Shown: positions 1,009 to 12,831, numbered from the stretch's first letter. The stretch: 17,656 nt of DNA from Vampirovibrionaceae bacterium NZW_1234 (GCA_041697335.1 JBGUGD010000013.1:1-17656), one strand, 5' to 3'. A program made the numbers and translations. Notes: a model not told the origin generated them from the letters alone.

Positions 1009-1068
1009 GCGCTGGTAGCCTAACTACGAACCATGAGGTCGGGAGTTCGAATCTCTCACAGCGCACCA
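1009..1068 (+). tRNA. Truncated (pseudo) tRNA-Arg(ACG), probable attR copy; lacks D arm and 5' anticodon stem
   Basis: Anticodon loop CTACGAA (1024-1030), then CCATG, AGGTC, T arm GGGAG-TTCGAAT-CTCTC, acceptor 3' strand ACAGCGC and ACCA ending at 1068. GCGCTG at 1009 can pair with CAGCGC. Only 15 nt precede the anticodon loop instead of about 31. Confidence 0.85.
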
Positions 1069-1085
1069 CTTTTCTAAATCCTTTA

Positions 1086-1107
1086 AAGCACCCCGACCCG
1101 GGTGCTT
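1086..1107 (+). terminator. Hairpin downstream of the tRNA 3' end, probable intrinsic terminator
   Basis: AAGCACCC-6 nt-GGGTGCTT followed by ATGTGTTTTT. Confidence 0.6.
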
Positions 1108-1161
1108 ATGTGTTTTTAGATCGGGTTTCAGAGCATTGCCGTCAGGTTTAAGGAACAGATC

Positions 1162-1609: not shown

Positions 1610-2431
1610 CTAAGCTTTATCACCTGTCGAAAAGAGTGTCGATGCCTTGATTGCTTCCAGAACCTCTTTTGCCCGATCTTGCAGGTTAAGATGGGGCAAT
1701 GGAAACGGATTGCCAAGCGCCCCAAGTCCCCAACTAAACGCAGTTGTTGACGCGCCTGATGCATCTCGTACCGGAGATTCATTCAGGTTTAAATAGTAGT
1801 TAACCCCATTGTCGAGCCAGTGAAGCCGATATTTAGGAAACGTCTTGCCGCCGGTATAATGAACGTCTTCTTTGGCCAGTAAGTATTCACGCTCTCCGGC
1901 TCGAACCCGAATGACGGTTTCTCGAGGTGAGCTTTTCGGCAAAACATTCTCTTCCAGCTTTTGGAGTGCACCTGCAGCCAAGACCGCGGCAAACCCATGA
2001 AAGGCTTGGGTAATAAGTTGCTTTTGCTGCTCTTGATGCGCCTCGGGTGTTAGCAGGGACTTGGCTTTTTCCTTTGCAATAGCCAACGTACGGCGAATAA
2101 AATCCACCAGGGACTCCTGCTCATTCCGTAACAAGGGAGTCCGGCCATTGCAGGTCGTATTAATCGTTGCACAGTGCAACGATTTTTTGTCATGTGTCGC
2201 ATCAACATGTATCTGTTGCGGATCAACCTGGTCATCAATGGCCGCAAGGAGTCGCTCAAACTCATCGGTATGTTCAACCACATCGGCAATCTCCTGAAAA
2301 ATGGTCGGAGGCTTCGGTGCCACCGGATTCGCCGGTTGAACCGGTTTTGCTGCCGGATGAAAAAATAACTGATTTGGGAATGTGACACTTAACTGCGCCC
2401 CGAAGCGGGTGGCCTTTGGAATAACGTTCAT
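1610..2431 (-). CDS. Hypothetical protein, 273 aa, RFG leader and Pro-rich linker
   Basis: Long ORF. Start moved to ATG 2431 (MNVIPKATRFGA) because of a GGAGAG RBS at 2439-2444. No domain recognised. Confidence 0.75.
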   Translation of the reverse strand: MNVIPKATRFGAQLSVTFPNQLFFHPAAKPVQPANPVAPKPPTIFQEIADVVEHTDEFERLLAAIDDQVDPQQIHVDATHDKKSLHCATINTTCNGRTPLLRNEQESLVDFIRRTLAIAKEKAKSLLTPEAHQEQQKQLITQAFHGFAAVLAAGALQKLEENVLPKSSPRETVIRVRAGEREYLLAKEDVHYTGGKTFPKYRLHWLDNGVNYYLNLNESPVRDASGASTTAFSWGLGALGNPFPLPHLNLQDRAKEVLEAIKASTLFSTGDKA

Positions 2432-2691
2432 GTTGACACTCTCCAACAGCAAAATAATGCAACTAACACCATTTGCGGACAAAACGTCCTCTAAGAACGG
2501 GCAAACTGAATAATGATCAAAGAAACTGCTATTAGCGTATCTCAAGAACCGAGATTGTCCAAATGCCCATTTTTTCAATATTTCGTTACGGGCAACAAAT
2601 TGCTACATTTGTAATTTTTTAATTGCAGTGCCAACGCCTTCATACTAAAATCGTCACAGATAACGCTTCTATAAAAAGTTGGTGCTTCTTT

Positions 2692-3072
2692 ATGTCTTTG
2701 ACAATACAGGCTTCGGTGCGTTTTGGTCGTTTTGATTTCTGTGAAAAAGGCGGTGAAAGGCTCTTCAGCCCATCCAAAAAACAGGTAAAAACCGCCAAAA
2801 AAACTGCCAAGGCAGAAAAATCCACGAAAAAGAATAAAGCGAAAGCGCTTGAAGCGTCTGAATCGACCCAAAAACCACGGGTGGGGACACATCAGGACAC
2901 CTTCCAACCGACCGGGCAAACGCCCGCCCCTTATTCCTCATCGTCCTCCCGATCTGTACGCGGGGCTTGGTGGGGATCCGAGCACTGGGGGAGTGTCGGA
3001 CAAAGGCTTTCTTATGAGTCTCGCCTTATCATGCGTCACTATCCGCACTTATTCCGGAAACACCCTCGCTAA
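2692..3072 (+). CDS. Hypothetical basic, Lys-rich protein, 126 aa, RFG leader
   Basis: ATG 2692 gives MSLTIQASVRFG. Contains KKQVKTAKKTAKAEKSTKKNKAKA and a poly-Ser tract. Divergent from the 1610-2431 gene. No strong RBS. Confidence 0.6.
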   Translation: MSLTIQASVRFGRFDFCEKGGERLFSPSKKQVKTAKKTAKAEKSTKKNKAKALEASESTQKPRVGTHQDTFQPTGQTPAPYSSSSSRSVRGAWWGSEHWGSVGQRLSYESRLIMRHYPHLFRKHPR

Positions 3073-3270
3073 ACTCAACCGTGTTTGCGGCGGATCTTCG
3101 CCCTGATCTGACCCGCCGGGTAGGTTTTTGTCTGAAGTTCAAGTTTTTTCGGGTCCTATTTGAGTCCTACTGAGTCATTGCTAGGGATACCAGAAAAATC
3201 ACCCCAAGCGATTAAACCTTGCTCATTCAAAAATTGGTTTAACAAATCAAAAAACACAGCTGTCAGGCTT

Positions 3271-3284
3271 TGTAACGTTTTACA
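3271..3284. promoter_or_regulatory. Palindrome upstream of the glycosyltransferase pair, possible operator
   Basis: TGTAA-CGTT-TTACA about 75 bp before ATG 3358; regulator unknown. Confidence 0.3.
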
Positions 3285-3357
3285 CTTACGTCTATCGCAC
3301 GATTTTTACTTTATGATATAAAGGCAAAAGTTTAAGTCCGAAGAGTGAATCACACCC

Positions 3358-4476
3358 ATGAGTATTATACAGGCCGACATTCCGCATACGGGTCTTCAGC
3401 GGGATGAAAAACCTTCCATTCTCTATATCCTGACGCGTTACCCCCAGACGTCTCAGACCTATATCAAGAATGAAATTGAAGCGCTGATGACGGATTACAA
3501 TATTTCCATCATCACCCTAGAGCCGGCCGAATCCCCCTATGAAAACCACCTGCCCTTTGTCGAGATCAGGGAAACGGAAAAAATGCAGGCGGTAATTGAT
3601 CAGGTGAAGCCCCAGATTATTCATACGCATTTTGTGCATATGGCACGCCGGGTAGGCCCCCTTGCCAGGAAAAATAAGATTCCGTTCACCGTCCGGACCC
3701 ATTCGTTTGACATCCTAAACCTTTCCAAGCCGTCGCTCTGGCAATCCATCCAGGGACACCTGATCCAGCGCTGGAACGTGAAGGATATCCGATGGCTGAA
3801 TGATGATCTGTGCCTCGGCATCCTGGTGTTCCCAGGGCTTCGCCAGCATCTGATGCGGCAGGGGGTCAATCCGAAAAAACTGATTGACTGCTATCCGGTT
3901 ATCAACTACGGCGCTTTTTACAACCGGGAACCCAATGGCGACGCCATTATGAACATGGGCGCCGTGATCCGGAAGAAGAAAATGGAAGATTTCATCGAGC
4001 TGGCCCAGATGTTTCCCGGCCGTGTATTTAACCTCTACGACATTGAATGTGTCCAGCCGGAGTACCATAAGGAATTGAAGCGGATGAATGCAGAAACCCA
4101 ACATCCGGTGAACTTCATCCCAGCGGTAGCTCCCGAGGTGATGCCTGCCGAGTACAAAAAGCACCAGTGGCTGGTGTACACGGCTTGCCCTAAGACCTCT
4201 ACTGTGGGCTGGTCCATGGCTGTCGCCGAGGCTCAAGCCTCTGGAGTTGGGGTTTGTTTCCCGAACATTCGCCCGGATTTAAAAGAGTATATCGGCGGGG
4301 CCGGTTATCTCTACGACTCTTTGGACGAGGTTAGACGGATCATCTCCCAGCCGGTTCCTGAAGACATTCGGGAGAAAGGCTTTATCCAGGCCAAAAAATC
4401 CGATATACAGGGCCATAAGCACCTATTAACCAATTTGTGGGACAAGGTGATTCAAGCCGCTTCAACGTATCGGTAA
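3358..4476 (+). CDS. Glycosyltransferase, GT-B fold (family 4-like)
   Basis: YILTRYPQTSQTYIKNEI, IIHTHF, FTVRTHSFDI, KKK, GWSMAVAEAQASGVGV, EYIGGAGYL. Confidence 0.88.
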   Translation: MSIIQADIPHTGLQRDEKPSILYILTRYPQTSQTYIKNEIEALMTDYNISIITLEPAESPYENHLPFVEIRETEKMQAVIDQVKPQIIHTHFVHMARRVGPLARKNKIPFTVRTHSFDILNLSKPSLWQSIQGHLIQRWNVKDIRWLNDDLCLGILVFPGLRQHLMRQGVNPKKLIDCYPVINYGAFYNREPNGDAIMNMGAVIRKKKMEDFIELAQMFPGRVFNLYDIECVQPEYHKELKRMNAETQHPVNFIPAVAPEVMPAEYKKHQWLVYTACPKTSTVGWSMAVAEAQASGVGVCFPNIRPDLKEYIGGAGYLYDSLDEVRRIISQPVPEDIREKGFIQAKKSDIQGHKHLLTNLWDKVIQAASTYR

Positions 4477-4488
4477 AGAGGGATTTCC

Positions 4489-5457
4489 ATGGCGTTCAAG
4501 GTCTCCGTTATCATCCCAGTTTATAATGCCGAGCGTTATGTGGAAGAGGCAGTTCGCTCTGCTCTGGCCCAGGAGGAAACGGGAGAGGTGATTCTGATTG
4601 AGGATGCCTCTCCGGATAATGCATTGGCCGTTTGTGAGCGCTTAGCAGAGAGTGATGAGCGTGTAAGACTATATCGTCATCCGGATGGACAGCACCTGGG
4701 AGCCGGTCCCAGCCGAAATCTGGGGATTGAAAAAGCGACCTGCGATTATATTGCCTTTCTGGATGCCGATGACTTCTATGCCCCAGATTGCTTTAAGAAA
4801 GCCAAAGAGCTTCTATCGGCCCATCCAGAGGCTGATGGGGTCTACGGCTCCCAAGGCGTGCATTTCGATAGCCCCGAGGCCAAGGAACGCTATCAGCACA
4901 TTGCTCGATTCCAGCCCAGCCATACCCGGCAGGAGGTGGTTCACCCCAAGGACGTGTTCAATGAGATAGGCGCTAAGGTTCGCATTCACGTTAATACACT
5001 GGTCCTTAGAAAGCAGGCCTTCGCCAAGGCGGGCGTTTTCAATCAGTACCGTCTCTCACAGGATACGCACTTCTTTTATAGGTTGGCTTTAACATGTACC
5101 CTACTCAGCGGCTCCATCGATCAGCCGGTGGCCATTCGACGGGTGCACTTGGAGAACCGCGTCCATGAGCTGGATACCCAGAAAATGGAAGACTGCTTCA
5201 GGTGAAAGGCTGAGTTATTTATGTCCCTAGCGCTGTGGGCCCGGAGCCATGGCATTCATTGGAAACATTGCAATAAGCTTTTGAAGATGGGGATCAAACA
5301 GCTGTTTGGTTACCAAAAGTGTCGTGGCCAGCTTACGGTGCTGGAGCCCATATGGTGGGCTAAAAAGGCATTCACGATTTTCTACCCCTTGTTTCGTCTC
5401 CGCCCGGACATTCTGCAGATGCTGGCTCAACGCTACCATGTGACTGCTGCCGAATAG
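4489..5457 (+). pseudogene. Glycosyltransferase family 2 interrupted by one in-frame TGA (5203-5205); the 238-aa catalytic part 4489-5205 is intact
   Basis: VSVIIPVYNAE, ILIEDASPD, SRNLGI, YIAFLDADD. After the TGA the same frame continues AAG GCT GAG TTA TTT ATG into the 5221-5457 ORF, 322 codons in total. Confidence 0.8.
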
Positions 5458-5536
5458 AGCCCTTTGCCAAAAGCCGAGGTGTGCACTGCCAAGATGTCAA
5501 CCGGTGACAAGTATATTGTCGGAGAGACGGGCGCTC

Positions 5537-5555
5537 TGTATCGATGTTTGATACA
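5537..5555. promoter_or_regulatory. Inverted repeat, probable toxin-antitoxin autorepression operator
   Basis: TGTATC-7 nt-GATACA directly before the higB relic, overlapping a -10-like TACACT. Confidence 0.45.
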
Positions 5556-5726
5556 CTGATCCAATTTTTTGCGGAAAAACCAACCAGGACACCTATGACG
5601 GGTCCAACTCCAAAGAGGCACGAAGGTTCCCCACCCAAGCCGCTTCACCCAATTGCCCAGCGTAAACTGGATGCCATTCGACGAGCAATAACCTTGACAG
5701 ACTTAATGGCCCCGCCAGGCAATCGA
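5556..5726 (+). pseudogene. higB: HigB (RelE/ParE family) toxin relic, N-terminal part, frameshifted
   Basis: Across frames: LIQFFAEKPT / QDTYDGSNSKEARRF / PKPLHPIAQRKLDAIRRAITLTDLMAPPGNR. This matches the HigB pattern ARRKLD...DL..PPGNR. The C-terminal part is missing. Confidence 0.8.
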
Positions 5727-5881
5727 TGGGCAACAGGGTGTTACCCACGAGATGGCGTGTCGCTTTGCAGATGCCTTTGGCACCTTGGTTGAATTTTTAG
5801 ATGGGCCTGCAAGCCGATGACGACATCTGGCAAGCACTGCGTCGGCATCAAAACATTCCCAGACACAAGACGGTGAGCTAA
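5722..5881 (+). pseudogene. higA: HigA antitoxin relic, C-terminal part
   Basis: IDGQQGVTHEMACRFADAFGTLVEF, then a frameshift/stop, then MGLQADDDIWQALRRH...TAA. This matches the HigA pattern GKRGITPEMALRLA.AFGTS.EFW..LQ..YDLWQA. Confidence 0.78.
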
Positions 5882-5933
5882 TGAGGCATCATCGCTCAAA
5901 GGGAATAATCGGGCATCTCTATAAAAGCGGGAA

Positions 5934-6419
5934 CTAGGCTTTGAAAGTTTCTTCCTGGATGGGTTGCCCCAAGGCATCCCGGTTGCCGCGTTTTTGGCAT
6001 TTTTCCAAATACGCAAACAGGGCTTGGCTTAAAAATCCAGGCTCTTCATCTTCAGAAGGATAGGTCCCATGACGAATGGCGTCATCGTTCTCATAATACA
6101 GATCCTGCTTTTTGCCGGGCTTTTTAATATCGTCGCGGGTATACGATAAGACCTCATCATCAATGGTCACGCCCACGGCATCTTGAATATATTCTTTAAA
6201 GTCGTGGCGATCAACGATAAGCGCTTCTGCCGGAGCATTCGTGTTTCTGCTGTCCTGAAAAAAATCTTTGGGAAAGTGTTGACCCGCTTCCCCCACAGGA
6301 CGGATGACAGAGGTACGCATCAAATAATTCGGTGTCGTGTCGCGTAACTGAGACATTCTCTTCTTCACTTCCGAGTACGGGCCTTTTAAATAGGTGGTTG
6401 CGCCAAAACGGATATCCAT
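5934..6419 (-). CDS. Hypothetical protein, 161 aa, starts MDIRFGA
   Basis: Start moved to ATG 6419 (GGAGA RBS at 6425-6429). No domain recognised. Confidence 0.75.
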   Translation of the reverse strand: MDIRFGATTYLKGPYSEVKKRMSQLRDTTPNYLMRTSVIRPVGEAGQHFPKDFFQDSRNTNAPAEALIVDRHDFKEYIQDAVGVTIDDEVLSYTRDDIKKPGKKQDLYYENDDAIRHGTYPSEDEEPGFLSQALFAYLEKCQKRGNRDALGQPIQEETFKA

Positions 6420-6604
6420 ACTTTTCTCCAGACTGTTGAGTGACATAGTCCATAAAACAGTCCTGAAGAAAAAAAATTGCCTCTATTAAAAACAACCTTC
6501 GAATCGCTTTTAAGTCCATTCGGCACTCGTTCCACTTCAAAGACTGCATATGTGGAACCCATGTGGTCGTAGGTCCGCATTTTCCCGGTGATTCAAAGCA
6601 CATT

Positions 6605-6636
6605 GGATGACGGTAATGACGGATGACGGTAATGAC
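6605..6636. repeat. Perfect 16-bp tandem duplication GGATGACGGTAATGAC x2
   Basis: Copies at 6605-6620 and 6621-6636. Confidence 0.95.
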
Positions 6637-6657
6637 AAAACAATTCCGGCTTTATGC

Positions 6658-6888
6658 GGGCTTATCCTCTGGACCGTTAAACCCTACAAACTCTGAGAGC
6701 CGTCGTCTGAACGAATCAGACAACACGCGAGACCCTGGCTTTGAACAATATCACGTTAAAAAATGATACCATGCGACACGTCCATGACGCGGTGTGAACG
6801 GTCATTGTACCCAGAGTGATGGCAGGGTCTAATGATAGAGAACTGTTTCGGCGACACAGATCTTTATCGCCAGTTAGTTAAGGGGCCC
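6658..6888. ncRNA. Candidate structured RNA: long irregular rod, 6S-RNA-like architecture
   Basis: About 12 collinear nested short helices found by eye, best AGACCCTG 6730-6737/CAGGGTCT 6823-6830. No ORF-track ORF overlaps it. Not folded computationally; strand unknown. Confidence 0.3.
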
Positions 6889-7266
6889 AATAAACCTAGT
6901 AGACAGAAGCTATGGCCTGACAGGCAATAGACTGGAACCTGCCATTCCGGCTTGAGCAGTACCTACCGCAAACTGGAATGTTATTTGCGGAAGGTAGTTC
7001 TGGGAAGTACTAGGCGCCAAATTGAATTGATTGGCGTAAACCAATTCAACAATTCCAGAAGCATCAAAAGTCAACTTATTGGTCTGAAGCCGGTTATTTT
7101 CAGAATCCTGCAAATTAATTGATACTGGCAAAGAGGGCTCTTAGCTCCGGTAGGGGATCATGCAATAAAAAAGAAAGAATGCTTAATCGCTCAATAACTT
7201 CATGAAAAAGCTTCCACGCTTAATCCGTAGCGAAAATCACACCAGTGTCATTATAAATCGAATTTA

Positions 7267-7314
7267 GCAGAAAGGCCCTTACCCCTGCCAGCGGCGGGAA
7301 TAAGGGCTCTCTGC
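7267..7314 (-). terminator. Strong hairpin downstream of the YsnF-like gene
   Basis: GCAGAAAGGCCCTTA...CTGCC-AGC-GGCGG...TAAGGGCTCTCTGC, about 30 bp past the stop codon. Confidence 0.6.
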
Positions 7315-7345
7315 ACAGAAAGCACGATGACGACGATGAAGACAC

Positions 7346-8239
7346 CTAGCGGTAATCATTTTGATCCTCAATATCGATGTCACCGGGATTATCCACATCG
7401 AGGCGCTCTCTTTGAACCTGCTCTTCGACAACGCGATTCTCGGTTCGCGCTTCTTTACGCAAGGTCACTTCTTCACTGGCCACTGGGCGTTTCGTGACCT
7501 CAACGTCTTCTTTGTATAAAGGAATATCGATGGATGTGTCTTCGCCGAGTACATCCGTTTGCGACTGCCCACGCTCACCTTCGTACCATTCCCCGCGTTC
7601 GCCCTCGAAATCGCCGCGACGCCCTTGGGTGATATCGGTTTCGCCGGAAACCGGATGACGCTCGATGACCAGGTGCTCTTCGGTCACGGGAACGTCAATT
7701 CGCTCCATATGGGTATCTACGGTTTTTCGCACGTGGACATCCCCCACTTTTTCGCGACGCTTATCCACATTCAACCGTTCTTCCAATAAGCGAATCCGCT
7801 CAGGCGCCTGGAATTTATCATATTGATCATAATTAATGGGTTCACTGGCAAACTCACCTTTACGACGAGATTCCGGATAATACGAGCCCAAGACTGTGGA
7901 TTCGTATTCCTCATCGGACATGTGGCTCTCATCGTAGTCAGGCATGGATTTAACCTGCTCCTTTGAAAGCCCTCGAATCACCACTTCTCGATTGGCATCA
8001 TCAATATGTAACATCCCCACCGGGACCAGGACGCGCTTGCCCGTGAACCAGTTTCCGTAATCCACGACCACATAGCGCAAGCGACCGTTATCATCAATGA
8101 CATAGTCATCGACTTTCCCAATTTTTTCGCCCTCATCGCTAATGACCTTAAAGCCACAAATTTCAGAACCTTCTCCACCCATTTCCTGTATGGGCTCATC
8201 ATAGCGTTGCGACTGATCCCGTTTAAACGTTTCCAGCAT
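7346..8239 (-). CDS. PRC-barrel plus DUF2382 (YsnF/AvaK) domain protein
   Basis: PRC barrel: GEKIGKVDDYVIDDNGRLRYVVVDYGNWFTGKRVLVPVG. YsnF: IRLLEERLNVDKRREKVGDVHVRK, IPLYKEDVEVTKRPVASEEV. AAGGAG RBS. Confidence 0.92.
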   Translation of the reverse strand: MLETFKRDQSQRYDEPIQEMGGEGSEICGFKVISDEGEKIGKVDDYVIDDNGRLRYVVVDYGNWFTGKRVLVPVGMLHIDDANREVVIRGLSKEQVKSMPDYDESHMSDEEYESTVLGSYYPESRRKGEFASEPINYDQYDKFQAPERIRLLEERLNVDKRREKVGDVHVRKTVDTHMERIDVPVTEEHLVIERHPVSGETDITQGRRGDFEGERGEWYEGERGQSQTDVLGEDTSIDIPLYKEDVEVTKRPVASEEVTLRKEARTENRVVEEQVQRERLDVDNPGDIDIEDQNDYR

Positions 8240-8404
8240 CGTCCCGTCTCCTTTAACCCCTTACTGCTCTTCTGTGACTCTTTTCCTCAGAACATGTATT
8301 TCTATTTTGCACAGTATAGGGTATGACCGTATCAACATTCATAAGCCTGAAGAGGGATATCCAAGCAATATCGGCATTCTCAAGCACCCTCGGAACAAAG
8401 CGAT

Positions 8405-8773
8405 TTATTCCAGAAGTTGGTGCAAGGTAATGATATTCCCATCCGGATCCGTCAGGTAGGCCGTTTTGCAATGCCCGCCATTATCAACAGGCTCCTGGAG
8501 GAAGTGAACTCCGGCCGTTTTCAACCGTTTATAAAGTTCATCGATATCCGCCACCTCGAACGCAATAGACCCGGTGACCTTTAGTGCCTCAAACTCGGGA
8601 GGTGTCATTTGAGACGCCTTCCAAACGGCAAAAGTCTCTCCGTTCACATCATACTCTTCCCATGTTCCGGCATAGGCGCCAGATGAGGGCAACCCCAAGA
8701 GCCCTTCATAAAACGCCCTGGCCCGATCCAAGTCGGCCACCTGATGTGAGGCATAAGCAAATCCCTTAATCAT
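8405..8773 (-). CDS. VOC family protein, 122 aa
   Basis: Start moved to ATG 8773 (MIKGFAYA). VADLDRARAFYEGLLGL, IAFEVADID, YLTDPDGNIITLHQ. Confidence 0.92.
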   Translation of the reverse strand: MIKGFAYASHQVADLDRARAFYEGLLGLPSSGAYAGTWEEYDVNGETFAVWKASQMTPPEFEALKVTGSIAFEVADIDELYKRLKTAGVHFLQEPVDNGGHCKTAYLTDPDGNIITLHQLLE

Positions 8774-9126
8774 GGTTCGTCCCCGTCGTGCTCCAATATA
8801 GCCTATACCCAGGAGAACCCGGAGGCATTGCCCGACGAGCGTAAGTTGAAAATACGAATTCGTAAACCGGCACAACACGTAACGGATTGAGCAGGTAACG
8901 GCCAACGTGATCTCACACCAGTAGAGCCATGCCGATGATGATCTGGAGCAGGTCGCAGGGACTCAGGGGATAACGCCGATGCCCGGTTGGTCACGGATCG
9001 AACTGAGTAGGAAGAACACAAGCCCTCTCTAAAATAAATTTCAAAACGTAACGATTTTCGACATGAGCCCACGGCTCAAAGCGGGTTTATGGTAAGGTGA
9101 GCCCAGAATGATGACGAAGGTGTGTG

Positions 9127-9534
9127 ATGATGGATATCCGATTTCGGGCGAACTATCAAATTTTAGGGCCAGCGCGCCCCAATGTGCAGGCGGAAGCAGA
9201 TCTGCTTCAGGCACAGAGCCAAAAGCTGGCTTTTAGCGTGGTGGCCTCCACGGGTACTGAAAAAAGCCCTGCAGCCAATCCCAATGAGCAATTCGGAGGC
9301 TTTGTGGTCACCGATAAAGACGCCGCCAAATTCTTAAAACAACAAGGCTTGCCGGATATTGATTTAAACCGGGATAAAGCCCTGGTGCAACAGGAAGGGG
9401 ACGCCTTTATCCGACAAAAATTTGCACTAGCCACCCCAGAGGGCCTCAGCCAATTTGTGTTGGCCTTGTGTCGTTTTTCCTATTTCGAAAGCTTAGTCAA
9501 AAACAATGTAATTGAGAAACGCTTGTTCTCCTAA
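9127..9534 (+). CDS. Hypothetical protein, starts M(M)DIRFRA
   Basis: ORF with GAAGG RBS at 9116-9120; start could be 9124, 9127 or 9130. N-terminus resembles that of the 5934-6419 protein. Confidence 0.72.
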   Translation: MMDIRFRANYQILGPARPNVQAEADLLQAQSQKLAFSVVASTGTEKSPAANPNEQFGGFVVTDKDAAKFLKQQGLPDIDLNRDKALVQQEGDAFIRQKFALATPEGLSQFVLALCRFSYFESLVKNNVIEKRLFS

Positions 9535-9578
9535 TCCCTTTATCAGCAAGACTTACACAAGAAGACGAGACCTGACCG

Positions 9579-10223
9579 ATGCATCCCATTCAGTTAACAC
9601 CCAAACGCCCGCTGTTGCACCAGAGTCATCTCACCCGGTTTGGCGCACCGCGTCCACTGTCTGCCCAGGCACAGTGGCGGCAAGCGGCAGAAGGACTGCT
9701 TGTTGACTCCGCCAAAACAACGGCCGAAAAAATGGCGGCTATGGATGCCCTCTTTGCCCAAGGCTGGGATCTAAAACACCCGGACAACAAACAACTGATC
9801 CTAAGCGCCGTCAGCGCTGTCGGAATGAAAGACAGTGAACCCGCCATTGTTGATTACCTGATAGGTAAAGGACTTTATCTTTATGCCCAAGGGCACCTGA
9901 ACTGGAATGCGGCTCACCAGGTCGTCAATATGCCCTTTCCTCCCTATGGCTTGCTGACCTCCCTTTTGAAAGCGGACCAGCAGCAGGAAAAGCGTCTGGC
10001 GAACATGCCTGATAAAAAAGGCTTTACCCCCGTTCATGTCGCTGCCCGAAAAGGATACCTGGGTGCCTTGCAGCGTTTTGTGCAATTCCAAGCGGATTTC
10101 ACCTTGAAAACCCCACGCAATCAGGATGTGCATAGTCTGGTCTTGCTCAGCAAAAAACGCCCCGCCATTGACTATGTGCTTCAAACCATTCCGCGCAACC
10201 CTTCGCCTCCAGCGTCCATTTAG
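9579..10223 (+). CDS. Ankyrin-repeat protein with RFG leader
   Basis: One clear repeat NMPDKKGFTPVHVAARKGYLGALQRFVQFQAD, flanked by degenerate ones (IVDYLIGKG, NWNAAHQVV). N-term MHPIQLTPKRPLLHQSHLTRFGA. Confidence 0.85.
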   Translation: MHPIQLTPKRPLLHQSHLTRFGAPRPLSAQAQWRQAAEGLLVDSAKTTAEKMAAMDALFAQGWDLKHPDNKQLILSAVSAVGMKDSEPAIVDYLIGKGLYLYAQGHLNWNAAHQVVNMPFPPYGLLTSLLKADQQQEKRLANMPDKKGFTPVHVAARKGYLGALQRFVQFQADFTLKTPRNQDVHSLVLLSKKRPAIDYVLQTIPRNPSPPASI

Positions 10224-10255
10224 CTCGGGAGATGTAGGAGCGGTCCTTTTTCGAG
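10224..10255. terminator. Hairpin between convergent genes
   Basis: CTCGGGAGA...AGGA-GCGG-TCCT-TTTTCGAG fills the gap between the two stop codons. Confidence 0.4.
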
Positions 10256-10257
10256 GG

Positions 10258-11475
10258 TTAGCCGGCCGACATTCTTAAAAACACCAGGCTTAAACGCCAG
10301 AGGTATTTGAATACTTCGCTACATGCGGATTGTTTATCATAATTGGCAGGTAAAGAAACATTGGCAGCGTCAAAGCACTCACTAACCGTTTTTTTGCCAT
10401 CAATTTGACGATACATCTGAGCCACAACAGGCTGTAACGAAAAAGTTGCATAGGGTTTTCGAGAAACCTTGAAGTTATCGGCAGTATCTTCCTCCACAGT
10501 GCCTCGAGCCACGGGGATATAGCTCATCAATGCATCACTGTTAAAATCAGGCTTATAGGTTGCTTCCGGACGCTCAGGATGGCAGACAAAGAACGCGTGC
10601 TGGCCCAAGGTGCCATTAAACAACTCCATCACCTGCCAAATCTTGGCCTCAGGCAAGGCGTTAATCTGTCGGCACAAAGAATGGTTGGTATCGATTTGGC
10701 CCTCAGGGTAGTACAGCATGGAGTCCCACCATCCCATAAATTTCATACCCGCGGCATCAACAAACTCAAGACAATCGGCCACACGATAAGCGCGATCCTG
10801 AGGATGTAAAAACGTATCCACCAACCCGGCATCATATTGGGTGTCTTTCGCCCGCTTCAAATAATCCCGAACAAAATGGGATTGGGGAATCAAACCGAGA
10901 ACAGCCTTCACAGTAGCCACATCGTCTTCGGTCTGCCCCAAGCCCAAGGTTTGGAACATCTCCTGAAGCATGTACACACCAGTGCGGGAATATTTGCCAT
11001 ACAGCATTACGGCAATAACGCCATTGGGCCTGAGGACGGTTTTTAAGGCCCTGAGCCCGGCAACCGGATCCGGCAAATGGTGAAGCACGCCGGACGTATC
11101 AATAAAATCAAAGGTTTGTCCCAATGAAGCAACATCTTCAATCGGGCACTGGTGCAGGGTCAAATTCTGGAGACCATGTTTGTCCTTCAGATATGCCTCG
11201 TGGGCCAGGCTGGAGGTACTGAGATCGATTCCCGTAATCTTGGCTTGAGGGTGGTTGTAAGCATAACGAGCAGCCGCATTACTGCCACATCCGGCTATCA
11301 GAATATCCATATCATCACGGAATTCCTCACAAGGCCAATAAGACCAGAACCGAGTGCTGGGATCAGCTCCATCTCTCCTGTGACGATGCTCCGGAGCACT
11401 CAGATCCTGAATTGGAAAAGGGTAAACCCATTTTTCATACTGGCTGGCCACGGCCTCATGAACAGACTTTGTCAT
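10258..11475 (-). CDS. Class I SAM-dependent methyltransferase, about 405 aa
   Basis: ILIAGCGS, ITGIDLS, FDFIDTSGVLHHLPDP, LRPNG, LVDTFLHPQDRAY. Start moved to ATG 11475 (AAGGA RBS). Confidence 0.9.
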   Translation of the reverse strand: MTKSVHEAVASQYEKWVYPFPIQDLSAPEHRHRRDGADPSTRFWSYWPCEEFRDDMDILIAGCGSNAAARYAYNHPQAKITGIDLSTSSLAHEAYLKDKHGLQNLTLHQCPIEDVASLGQTFDFIDTSGVLHHLPDPVAGLRALKTVLRPNGVIAVMLYGKYSRTGVYMLQEMFQTLGLGQTEDDVATVKAVLGLIPQSHFVRDYLKRAKDTQYDAGLVDTFLHPQDRAYRVADCLEFVDAAGMKFMGWWDSMLYYPEGQIDTNHSLCRQINALPEAKIWQVMELFNGTLGQHAFFVCHPERPEATYKPDFNSDALMSYIPVARGTVEEDTADNFKVSRKPYATFSLQPVVAQMYRQIDGKKTVSECFDAANVSLPANYDKQSACSEVFKYLWRLSLVFLRMSAG

Positions 11476-11709
11476 TTCAAAATCCTTTATTCCCCAATTA
11501 AGGGCGCTCACACCACGTGCTGATCATATCATGACACGGCAATTCCATCGCATTGGCTCATTCGTTGGAGTGAGCCGTTTGGGGAATGAAGGACGTCAAA
11601 AATAAAGTTCAATTTCAAACGTAAACACACCCCCAAAAAGAAATTTTCTATCGGACCCCGTTTTAGATAGAGTACTTCTCATCAAATGACCCAGAAGAGA
11701 CTGACCACC

Positions 11710-12831
11710 ATGATGACCAATCTGATCTCCTTTCCAACAACCAGCACCCACATTCGTCCCGTTCGTCCTATGCCCCTGCTTAACCTCCGGTTTGGTGACG
11801 CCAAACTCAACGTGGAAGTCAAAACCCTTCCGTTTTCAACTCAAACACGCCCACTACCTAACGTGAAAGTGTTTACCGGTTCCGCATTTCCGGAATTGGC
11901 TCGGATGGTTGCCGATAAACTCGGGCTTCCTCTGTCCAAGAGCGAGCTCAAAACCTTCCCCGATCGTCATACCTTTGCTCGGATTGATGAAACCGTGCGT
12001 AATCAGGATGTCGTGATCATTCAACCGACTTCGGGCACAGCCGATGGCCCTTCTCCCAACGACAATATTTTTGAACTGGCCCAGCTCATTACCTCGGCGA
12101 AACAAGCTGAAGCCCGCTCCGTCACCATTGTAAACCCTTTCTACGGGTACAGTCGTTCCGATCGGTCTGTAAAGGATAGGGAAGTGGCGGCTGCAAAGCT
12201 GGTTACCGACTTTTTGGTAATGGCCGGTGCTGATCGCATTATTTCCGGTGATATTCATAACAAAGCCATTACCAGCTTTACCAACAAATCATTTAAAAAC
12301 CTGAAACTCCTCCCCGTGCTGGGCCAATATATTAAAGAAAACTACGATCTGTCGGAAGTGGTTGTTGTCTCGCCAGACCATGGGGGAACCAAGCGCTCCA
12401 CACAAGTTGCCAAGCTATTGGGCAAGGGCAATTATGTTGGGATCTTTGACAAACGCAGAGATGATAACGGGGCACTCCTGCCGGATCCGATTTTTATCGG
12501 TAACCCGGACAGTGTGAAAGGCAAGGTCGTGGTGATGGGCGATGACATTATCGACACCGCCGGAACCATTTGCCAGAATGCGGATGCCTTGATGAAGATG
12601 GGTGCAAAGAAAGTCATCGTGATTGCGGCCCACGGCTTTTTTACCAAAGATGCCCTTGATAAAATCCAAAAGTCGAGCATCAGTGAAGTGGTGGTTTCAA
12701 ACTCCATGGCCCTGAGCGCCAAAGCCAAACTTGTTGATAAGATTACCCAGGTTTCTATCGCTCCGGTGATTGCCGAATACATCTCTCGTCTGCTCGGCAC
12801 CAACGAGTCCATGGCTGAACTTAAAGAGTAG
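11710..12831 (+). CDS. prs: Ribose-phosphate pyrophosphokinase (PRPP synthetase), divergent, with N-terminal extension
   Basis: VFTGSAFPELA, ETVRNQDVVIIQ, PFYGYSRSDR, VVVSPDHGG, DKRR, PRPP-binding VMGDDIIDTAGT. Start could be 11686, 11710 or 11713. Confidence 0.93.
   Translation: MMTNLISFPTTSTHIRPVRPMPLLNLRFGDAKLNVEVKTLPFSTQTRPLPNVKVFTGSAFPELARMVADKLGLPLSKSELKTFPDRHTFARIDETVRNQDVVIIQPTSGTADGPSPNDNIFELAQLITSAKQAEARSVTIVNPFYGYSRSDRSVKDREVAAAKLVTDFLVMAGADRIISGDIHNKAITSFTNKSFKNLKLLPVLGQYIKENYDLSEVVVVSPDHGGTKRSTQVAKLLGKGNYVGIFDKRRDDNGALLPDPIFIGNPDSVKGKVVVMGDDIIDTAGTICQNADALMKMGAKKVIVIAAHGFFTKDALDKIQKSSISEVVVSNSMALSAKAKLVDKITQVSIAPVIAEYISRLLGTNESMAELKE

Follow-up and report, generated by a model that had tools for sequence, protein, structure and literature searches.

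An Arg-Phe leader near the N-terminus of many proteins in a Vampirovibrionia genome and a candidate link to a second flagellum-derived export apparatus

Leaders in the window and across the genome

The DNA considered here, hereafter the window, is a stretch of 17,656 nucleotides from Vampirovibrionaceae bacterium NZW_1234 (GCA_041697335.1, JBGUGD010000013.1:1-17656), in which six genes encode proteins with the tripeptide Arg-Phe-Gly (RFG), or a variant of it, close to the N-terminus. Analysis of the source genome indicated that these leaders belong to a class that is real, genome-wide and apparently undescribed, and we favour, with moderate confidence, the interpretation that they mark substrates of a second, flagellum-derived type III export system. 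The six genes and one upstream box are listed below, with positions counted over the whole window.

1610..2431, minus strand: orphan protein of 273 amino acids, RFG at residues 9-11 (bases 2399-2407)
2692..3072, plus strand: orphan open reading frame (ORF) of 126 amino acids, RFG at residues 10-12 (bases 2719-2727)
5934..6419, minus strand: orphan protein of 161 amino acids, RFG at residues 4-6 (bases 6402-6410)
6453..6483, minus strand: upstream box of the preceding gene (GCAA-N9-TTGAG-N5-TT), which begins 64 bases ahead of the 6419 ATG
9127..9534, plus strand: orphan protein of 135 amino acids, variant leader I-RFR-A, residues 5-7 (bases 9139-9147)
9579..10223, plus strand: weak-ankyrin-repeat protein of 214 amino acids, RFG at residues 20-22 (bases 9636-9644)
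11710..12831, plus strand: the genome's second phosphoribosyl pyrophosphate (PRPP) synthetase by Pfam/NCBIfam, 373 amino acids, RFG at residues 27-29 (bases 11788-11796)

The six N-termini and their starts agree with those given in a preliminary description of this DNA. The motif falls at residues 9, 10, 4, 5, 20 and 27, and the stretch ahead of it is acid-poor as described, with 0 or 1 acidic residue in each. The attribution of RFG to the whole group stands for five of the six; the gene at 9127 encodes RFR, which is not enriched alone in the genome (21 vs 15.3) and falls within the wider consensus given below. The reported absence of the motif from neighbouring genes was also borne out, with RF[GSAQR] in the first 45 residues of none of the 10 remaining called genes of the window. 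A Pfam scan of the six returned four orphans, a weak ankyrin match (Ank_4/Ank_5, E 1.5e-4 to about 2e-4, below the cut-off) and the PRPP synthetase.

The protein encoded at 1610..2431 has a single paralog in the genome (31% identity), with the N-terminal variant P-K-FGA, and no relative beyond it among 5386 candidates. Our gene model skipped the ORF at 2692, in which codon-position bias is lacking; we nevertheless consider it probably a gene, because five of the six listed differences from the contig of a related strain (one contig, depth 4.8) are synonymous. Synonymous changes also account for six of the nine listed strain differences in the gene at 5934..6419, whose product reached a best Atlas score of merely 0.79, and for all seven in the ankyrin-repeat gene. 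In the PRPP synthetase, RFG lies within an N-terminal extension of ~50 residues; the paralog on another contig (C10) has no leader, and the nearest database relative (68%) retains L-FG-A at the same position.

Gene calling over the 3.70 Mb genome relied on a model of hexamers and starts that was blind to the motif. RFG was the most enriched trimer of residues 2-40: 136 of the 2859 proteins had it, whereas 50 composition shuffles gave 15.0 +/- 3.5 (at most 22) and the internal rate predicted 22.7; C-termini contained it in 32 of 2656. The N-terminal enrichment implied by the preliminary description was therefore found, at about ninefold over shuffles. The pattern [RK]F[GS] suggested there held for the Arg variants RFG and RFS and proved too wide at its first place, since KFG occurred 11 times against 8.7. 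Besides RFG, the N-termini were enriched (observed/expected) in RFS (50/20.2), RFA (35/16.9) and RFQ (35/12.3), giving a consensus [PVLI]-R-F-(x)-[GSA] in ~8% of proteins, almost all of them unrelated; the 143 proteins that have RFG by residue 45 represent 129 unrelated groups. The leader set including variants comprises 227 of 2979 proteins, rising to 259 with the wider pattern.

Chance, a nucleic-acid element or wrong start calls could in principle produce such a pattern, and it is true that the gene starts rest on a gene model that we built and that approximately 9 of the 59 Pfam-positive matches resemble a chance RFG within a domain. This explanation is nonetheless extremely improbable, and for the bulk of the set it is refuted, given the ninefold excess and a signal that is frame-specific and codon-indifferent. 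RFG-coding DNA was encountered 144 times in the reading frame but 62 and 43 times in the other frames, with every synonymous codon in use; therefore, the peptide itself is selected. Wrong starts are likewise at odds with a start model that is ignorant of the motif and misses leaders, as RFG appeared in the upstream in-frame extensions of 25 of 1248 further genes vs 8.1 expected. Selection thus acts on the leader motif as a peptide, close to the start of the protein.

In the stretch preceding the motif Pro, Ser, Arg and Thr are abundant, and Asp and Glu are scarce. A hydrophobic N-terminus (first 45 residues) was observed in 10 of 225 leaders vs 688 of 2687 other proteins, consistent with the earlier statement that the leader is not of the Sec, Tat or lipoprotein kind, and membrane helices were no commoner in leader proteins (31/259) than elsewhere (264/2020). 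The start M-x-[IVL] was found in 45% of 220 leaders vs 24% of other proteins, and the leader Phe lies at a median position of residue 18. An acid-poor, Arg/Ser/Thr-rich composition would also suit a mitochondrial or plastid import presequence read after delivery to a host, with Arg-Phe as processing site; R-F-S-S resembles plant mitochondrial processing sites, and among the cargo are citrate synthase, isocitrate, malate/lactate, glutamate and aldehyde dehydrogenases, and Lon, FtsH-like and ClpB-like proteins. Such mimicry is very unlikely, however, since the leaders form no amphipathic helix (hydrophobic moment of 142 leaders 0.448 vs 0.452 +/- 0.009 in shuffles), the Phe falls within the first 8 residues in 49 of 259, and the residue before it varies among relatives, being Arg, Lys or Leu in the organism's own order and Ser, Asn or Ala in two other families of the class (f4 and f7). 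Moreover, an export signal would still be required.

With respect to the proteins carrying the leader, a Pfam family was assigned to 59 of the 166 scanned (of 227) vs 60 of 70 control proteins encoded at the same loci (of 130 drawn, the first 70 were used), in agreement with the expected enrichment among orphans. Annotated carriers include proteases, hydrolases, lipases, AAA, TPR and HEAT proteins and metabolic enzymes. The enrichment anticipated among duplicate enzymes was found as well: 36 of 47 annotated leader proteins have a paralog lacking the motif pattern (with variant motifs in a few of these paralogs). For PurA, citrate synthase, malate/lactate and isocitrate dehydrogenases, PRPP synthetase, aldehyde dehydrogenase and an aminotransferase, the aligned region opens after the leader and near the start of the paralog, the added leader being 20-60 residues long and disordered. 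Core proteins rarely carry the motif, which was present in just 2 of 161 conserved genes, one of them a transglycosylase of the second operon described below. The leader repertoire is lineage-specific (no orthologue of the leader-bearing PRPP synthetase or PurA was found in the relatives searched), and the motif is nonetheless retained where a relative exists.

These carriers also bear on whether the leader could act inside the cell, as a degron or adaptor site for a Clp, Lon or FtsH-type protease or as a pole or pad localisation tag on proteins of one life-cycle stage, a stage that the upstream box and a sigma factor would define and with which the second apparatus would merely be co-regulated. 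Short aromatic-containing N-terminal motifs can act as protease signals, many carriers have ordinary cytoplasmic enzyme folds, several are AAA proteases, and no external conduit was found. Duplicated enzymes given a disordered leader, a mostly lineage-specific orphan cargo and the exclusion of Sec-type proteins are better suited to an effector repertoire, and we regard an intracellular tag as unlikely.

The second apparatus, an adjacent sigma factor gene and the upstream box

The source genome (94.75% complete; G, C and L numbers denote genomes, contigs and loci, and G000 is the source) contains two FlhA genes, one of them in a complete flagellum. The second set, distributed over four contigs, comprises FlhA2, FlhB2, FliP2, FliQ2, FliR2, FliO2, FliI2, FliH2, FliJ2, a FliK-like protein, FliF2, FliE2, FlgB2, FlgC2, three rod-type proteins, a transglycosylase and a FliN/SctQ-like C-ring protein that scored best with the SctQ model. 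FlgK, FlgL, FlgH, FlgI, FlgD and FliG are single-copy. The genome thus holds a full duplicate of the export gate, ATPase complex, MS ring, C-ring protein and rod set, and no second filament, hook junction or L/P ring. All the type III components considered (FlhA, FlhB, FliP, FliQ, FliR, FliI, FliH, FliJ, FliF and a FliM/N-type C-ring protein) are duplicated, whereas the second copy has no flagellin, hook junction, L/P rings or full FliG of its own. In a FastTree phylogeny of FlhA (92 rows; two loci without a row), FlhA2 formed one clade (support 100) within flagellar FlhA (support 100) and apart from the injectisome SctV, so that its gate protein does not place the apparatus among the injectisomes.

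Between fliF2 and fliH2, in FliG's place, lies a conserved 385-residue protein (L003:14374-15528, G000 C32) with a new N-terminal helical domain, a Pro/Glu linker and a C-terminal part that is weakly FliG-N-like. Its structural model was poor from a single sequence and reached a predicted local distance difference test value (pLDDT) of 76 with 11 rows, and Foldseek gave no match below E 0.001. Residues 236-325 matched FliG N-terminal domains weakly (Z 5.4-6.0), and hhalign to FliG gave a probability of 3.5%, which is a hint only that the protein might be a remodelled FliG. Separately, a 294-residue Leu-rich repeat-like protein with a weak MgtE_N match (L014:13800-14681, G000 C8) is encoded near fliP2/Q2/R2, and a relative of it lies near flhA2 in L083. 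Tandem Gly-rich frames immediately upstream of fliF2 in another genome (L193:597-3749, G008) are probably the antisense of a large repetitive gene.

The best named matches, Gastranaerophilales and Melainabacteria, place the window in Vampirovibrionia, the class holding Vampirovibrio, as the preliminary description had conditionally suggested, and we infer that the order is Vampirovibrionales. The organism is thus a non-photosynthetic relative of cyanobacteria; genomes of Melainabacteria were described by Di Rienzi et al. 2013, PMC3787301, and Soo et al. 2015, PMC4451040. Two near-full FlhA matches were found in 28 of 30 relatives from the organism's own order. Across 150 other genomes of the class (families labelled f1-f11), FlhA was present in 114 of 115 belonging to nine families and in 0 of 35 belonging to two, and in family f7 the FlhA2 type stood alone in 30 of 35 genomes. 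Families f2, f3 and f7 and the named loci have retained the gene order fliF2-X-fliH2-flhA2, where X is the 385-residue protein, and f6, f8 and f9 have not. All five single-FlhA genomes tested (one genome being one contig) lack flagellin and FliG_C yet keep 2-3 rod-type genes, and the second system is therefore kept without motility. The best reading is that Vampirovibrionia keep the second machine beside, or instead of, the swimming flagellum.

A gene of the sigma-70 family adjoins flhB2. Among families that have FlhA, 113 of 115 genomes contained it, as opposed to 0 of 35 in the two FlhA-less families, and its nearest Atlas clusters are mainly from Melainabacteria; this sigma factor is class-specific and has the same distribution as FlhA2. 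A paralog of it (45%; G000 C16:18950-19630) occurs in most of the same genomes and could read a second promoter type.

Leader genes share the box GCAA-N9-TTGAG-N5-TT, which is strand-specific and lies mostly 60-80 bases ahead of the start. A box score of at least 14 was reached by 61 of 259 leader genes vs 64 of 2720 others, and a matrix built from 57 non-leader sites gave 65/259 vs 28/2663, a partly circular comparison because those sites were chosen with the full matrix. The conserved upstream box thus marks about a quarter of the leader genes. Conversely, the wider motif F-(x)-[GSA] was present in 97 of 125 box genes vs 1037 of 2678. In the window, the box at 6453..6483 (score 22.8) is the sole site scoring >14 and is likely a promoter read by an alternative sigma factor. 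It lies at a distance within the peak of 60-80 bases, which favours the start at 6419 over the 6446 of the gene model. No second upstream motif was detected among 144 box-negative leader genes.

The box also exceeded its spacing-shifted control in six families with FlhA2 (box/control f1 106/23, ratio 4.6; f3 445/143, 3.1; f4 89/49, 1.8; f2 289/179, 1.6; f7 670/489, 1.4; f6 286/226, 1.3) and fell short of it in the two families without FlhA (f5 768/978 and f10 22/27, 0.8). A control with the pattern read backwards was dropped in favour of the spacing-shifted one, being biased and exceeded in f5 too. In a cross-genome test of 40 of the 109 listed box sites (the first listed per genome, five relatives, four families), an open frame followed 35, of which 21 carried the preset wide motif, compared with 226 among 700 genes taken at random (p 0.0014); with a tighter pattern, set post hoc, the figures were 15/35 vs 71/700. 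In G008, five of 92 genes have the box, and three of these are its three RFG genes.

In the source genome, a 1078-residue leader protein with a strong box (L043:7849-11082, G000 C8) has several sigma-70 region 4 matches. The product of L021:48-881 (G000 C25) matches MTP18, a mitochondrial family (E 8e-8), and has a Tyr/Pro-rich N-terminus without RF; several box genes begin with similar Tyr/Pro-rich stretches, perhaps a second leader type.

Candidate function of the leader

The interpretation that we favour, and hold to be rather probable from these sequence comparisons, is that the leader is the substrate signal of the second flagellum-derived type III system and that its bearers would be late substrates switched on by the system's own sigma factor. 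The signal would consist of Met, often a hydrophobic third residue, a variable-length, acid-poor spacer rich in Pro, Ser, Arg and Thr, and [PVLI]-R-F-(x)-[GSA]. The sigma factor beside flhB2 would read the box and activate late substrates in the manner of FliA; the Phe-centred motif may be bound by a chaperone or the export gate; and the cargo would be unfolded and passed via a rod-like conduit to the medium, an attachment pad or a host cell, where orphans, proteases, lipases, AAA proteins and duplicated metabolic enzymes might act outside the bacterium. The preliminary description had proposed a recognition or cleavage tag of one export pathway. The type III route is the best candidate for it, export itself being presumed. 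Its further suggestion, that these would be effectors directed at algal prey, does not hold as the general function, because gut-type Gastranaerophilales are among the relatives in which this machine and a related leader are retained.

Several observations weigh against this interpretation. The pattern FxxxPhi (Phi, hydrophobic), by which the gate recognises flagellar export substrates, was present in 70 of 242 leaders (29%) vs a background of 35%, and we know of no comparably strict linear motif among type III signals. No box was detected ahead of the apparatus operons or of any of 12 duplicated enzymes checked, and only one of the six window genes has it, so that the leader set is not one regulon; the box was also unenriched in three FlhA2 families (f8 74/104, ratio 0.71; f9 108/162, 0.67; f11 13/20, 0.65). 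Random 40-260 kb samples of f2, f4, f6, f8 and f9, which were too small, showed no excess of the RF motif, and the 6 vs 2.0 occurrences of [SN]F(x)G in 82 Gastranaerophilales-type orphans refer to a pattern picked post hoc. The four annotated loci contained no secretin, needle or translocon, the latter two without a family search of their own; no CesT (class I chaperone) match was obtained, though controls gave none either, and one YbjN match had E 0.04; and no outer-membrane ring or outer conduit was identified for the second apparatus. Finally, the link between leader and machine is a co-occurrence in one clade and not independent evidence, and since leader, box, sigma factor and machine share ancestry, this co-occurrence counts as one event.

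The genome offers other routes, and the leader could be an export signal for the swimming flagellum, a pilus-type system or another conduit, with the second apparatus doing other work. Besides its full flagellum, the genome encodes type IV pilus and Tad sets as well as five Omp85-family genes, and flagellar export of non-flagellar proteins has already been published, Campylobacter Cia and Yersinia YplA being reportedly exported in this manner. Pilus-type and two-partner secretion routes require a Sec signal, however, which the leaders lack, and leader-like genes led by the box occur in G124, whose single FlhA is of the FlhA2 type and in whose family three other genomes have no flagellin. We consider such a route quite improbable. 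The two secretins of the genome sit in pilus loci, and no match was found in it to PF03135, PF05943 or PF04984, the markers used for type IV secretion (VirB4), type VI secretion (VipB) and contractile sheaths (one marker each, at the stated completeness). Besides a BamA-like gene on C2, the Omp85-family genes are at G000 C34:117843-119546, C37:46973-48772, C9:61923-63437 and C15:15029-17125; these four have signal-peptide-like starts and are probably two-partner secretion pores.

Effector regulons marked by a promoter box are known from the HrpL hrp box, the PIP box and FliA class 3 promoters. As in these, many candidate substrate genes dispersed over the genome share a single upstream box at a fixed distance here; unlike them, the box has another sequence, does not precede the apparatus operons and has only a presumed reader. 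Buchnera basal bodies are counted among co-opted flagellar systems, and in Buchnera, Lysobacter and Campylobacter (Cia) the flagellar gate is used for enzymes or effectors, partly without a filament, as proposed here. Those organisms reuse or let decay their only flagellar system, whereas the present apparatus is a dedicated, class-wide duplicate with its own sigma factor and a motif on ~200 proteins. Co-option of the flagellar system for secretion has been described for Lysobacter enzymogenes OH11 (PMC7688988).

The second apparatus resembles the injectisome and its Myxococcales precursor in being flagellum-derived without motility parts and in having an SctQ-like C-ring protein and, presumably, a large, fast-changing cargo, and differs from the injectisome in that FlhA2 lies within flagellar FlhA rather than with SctV and in that no linked secretin, needle or translocon was found. 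According to portions of Abby and Rocha 2012, PMC3459982, the Myxococcales systems lack FliE, FlgB, FlgC and rod genes, which the second apparatus keeps, and several exaptations of the flagellar system are expected. The leader shares with flagellar export signals, as portrayed in sections of Bryant et al. 2022, PMC8983047, an N-terminal signal, presumably of the uncleaved type, that has no hydrophobic core and is followed by a Phe-centred motif; a hydrophobic residue close to the initial Met may be a further similarity. It differs in lacking FxxxPhi, in its non-structural cargo and in a spacing of 2 to ~45 residues, whereas the distance between signal and gate motif is critical in the flagellar case (Bryant et al. 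2022, PMC8983047, in part).

The duplicated genes themselves have been noted before. V. chlorellavorus has two flhA, fliF, flhB and fliP (Soo et al. 2015, PMC4451040, gene list), and ACD20 has two flhA, while a gut genome without filament, junction and L/P rings was read as reduction (Di Rienzi et al. 2013, PMC3787301, in part); the sections of both papers bearing on these genes file them under flagella or genome reduction and mention neither a leader nor a second system. The literature searched contained no account of the motif, box or second system, in which subscription journals were not covered. A type IV secretion system (T4SS) of the conjugative kind has been put forward for the attack of Vampirovibrio, with its pad and spike, in part of Soo et al. 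2015, PMC4451040; the present genome has no match to VirB4, the marker used for such a system, and the second type III system would be a different mechanism.

For the killing of Chlorella by Vampirovibrio, a class-wide, non-motile type III system would be an alternative to the T4SS proposal, and cultured V. chlorellavorus, whose gene list contains both sets, makes the mechanism testable. More broadly, the leader and the non-swimming second apparatus point to unrecognised protein delivery in a class that includes this alga-killing genus, and the 'decayed flagellum' of gut Melainabacteria may be reread as a retained machine. A strict linear type III-like signal would be rare and, if true, would make effector sets readable from sequence, while a secretion device that arose from the flagellum a second time would, if true, bear on the emergence of the injectisome. 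A bolder version, which we put forward only tentatively, is that a duplicated flagellum gave rise in Vampirovibrionia to an injectisome-like device of separate origin from the known injectisome, with a rod conduit, a dedicated sigma factor and the address Phi-x-Phe-(x)-Gly. This device might be the 'spike' between Vampirovibrio and its prey, delivering ~200 proteins including central-metabolism enzymes that would run in the host, and its retention in non-motile gut members might mean that they too inject partners.

Further observations

The source genome also contains two FliD genes (C5:100662-102452 and C5:141547-143340) and two MotA/MotB pairs (C4:11627-13225 and C10:135698-137695), any of which may belong to either system. 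DNA counts of a pattern combining ribosome-binding site, ATG and motif (f1 42/18, f3 255/140, f2 136/173, f5 477/427, hand-summed) were left unused because the pattern was powerless even in the organism's own genome.

The DNA of the window occurs in hot-spring and microbial-mat metagenomes, probably from one sample, and no RNA data set was listed among its holders. The minus-strand translation of window positions 1024-1110 reads like a tRNA remnant, and ARAGORN found no tRNA in the window. A short ORF at 5544-5792 on the plus strand has no Pfam match and several indels in the related strain and is likely a remnant; its end resembles what we take to be part of a HigB-type toxin-antitoxin gene.

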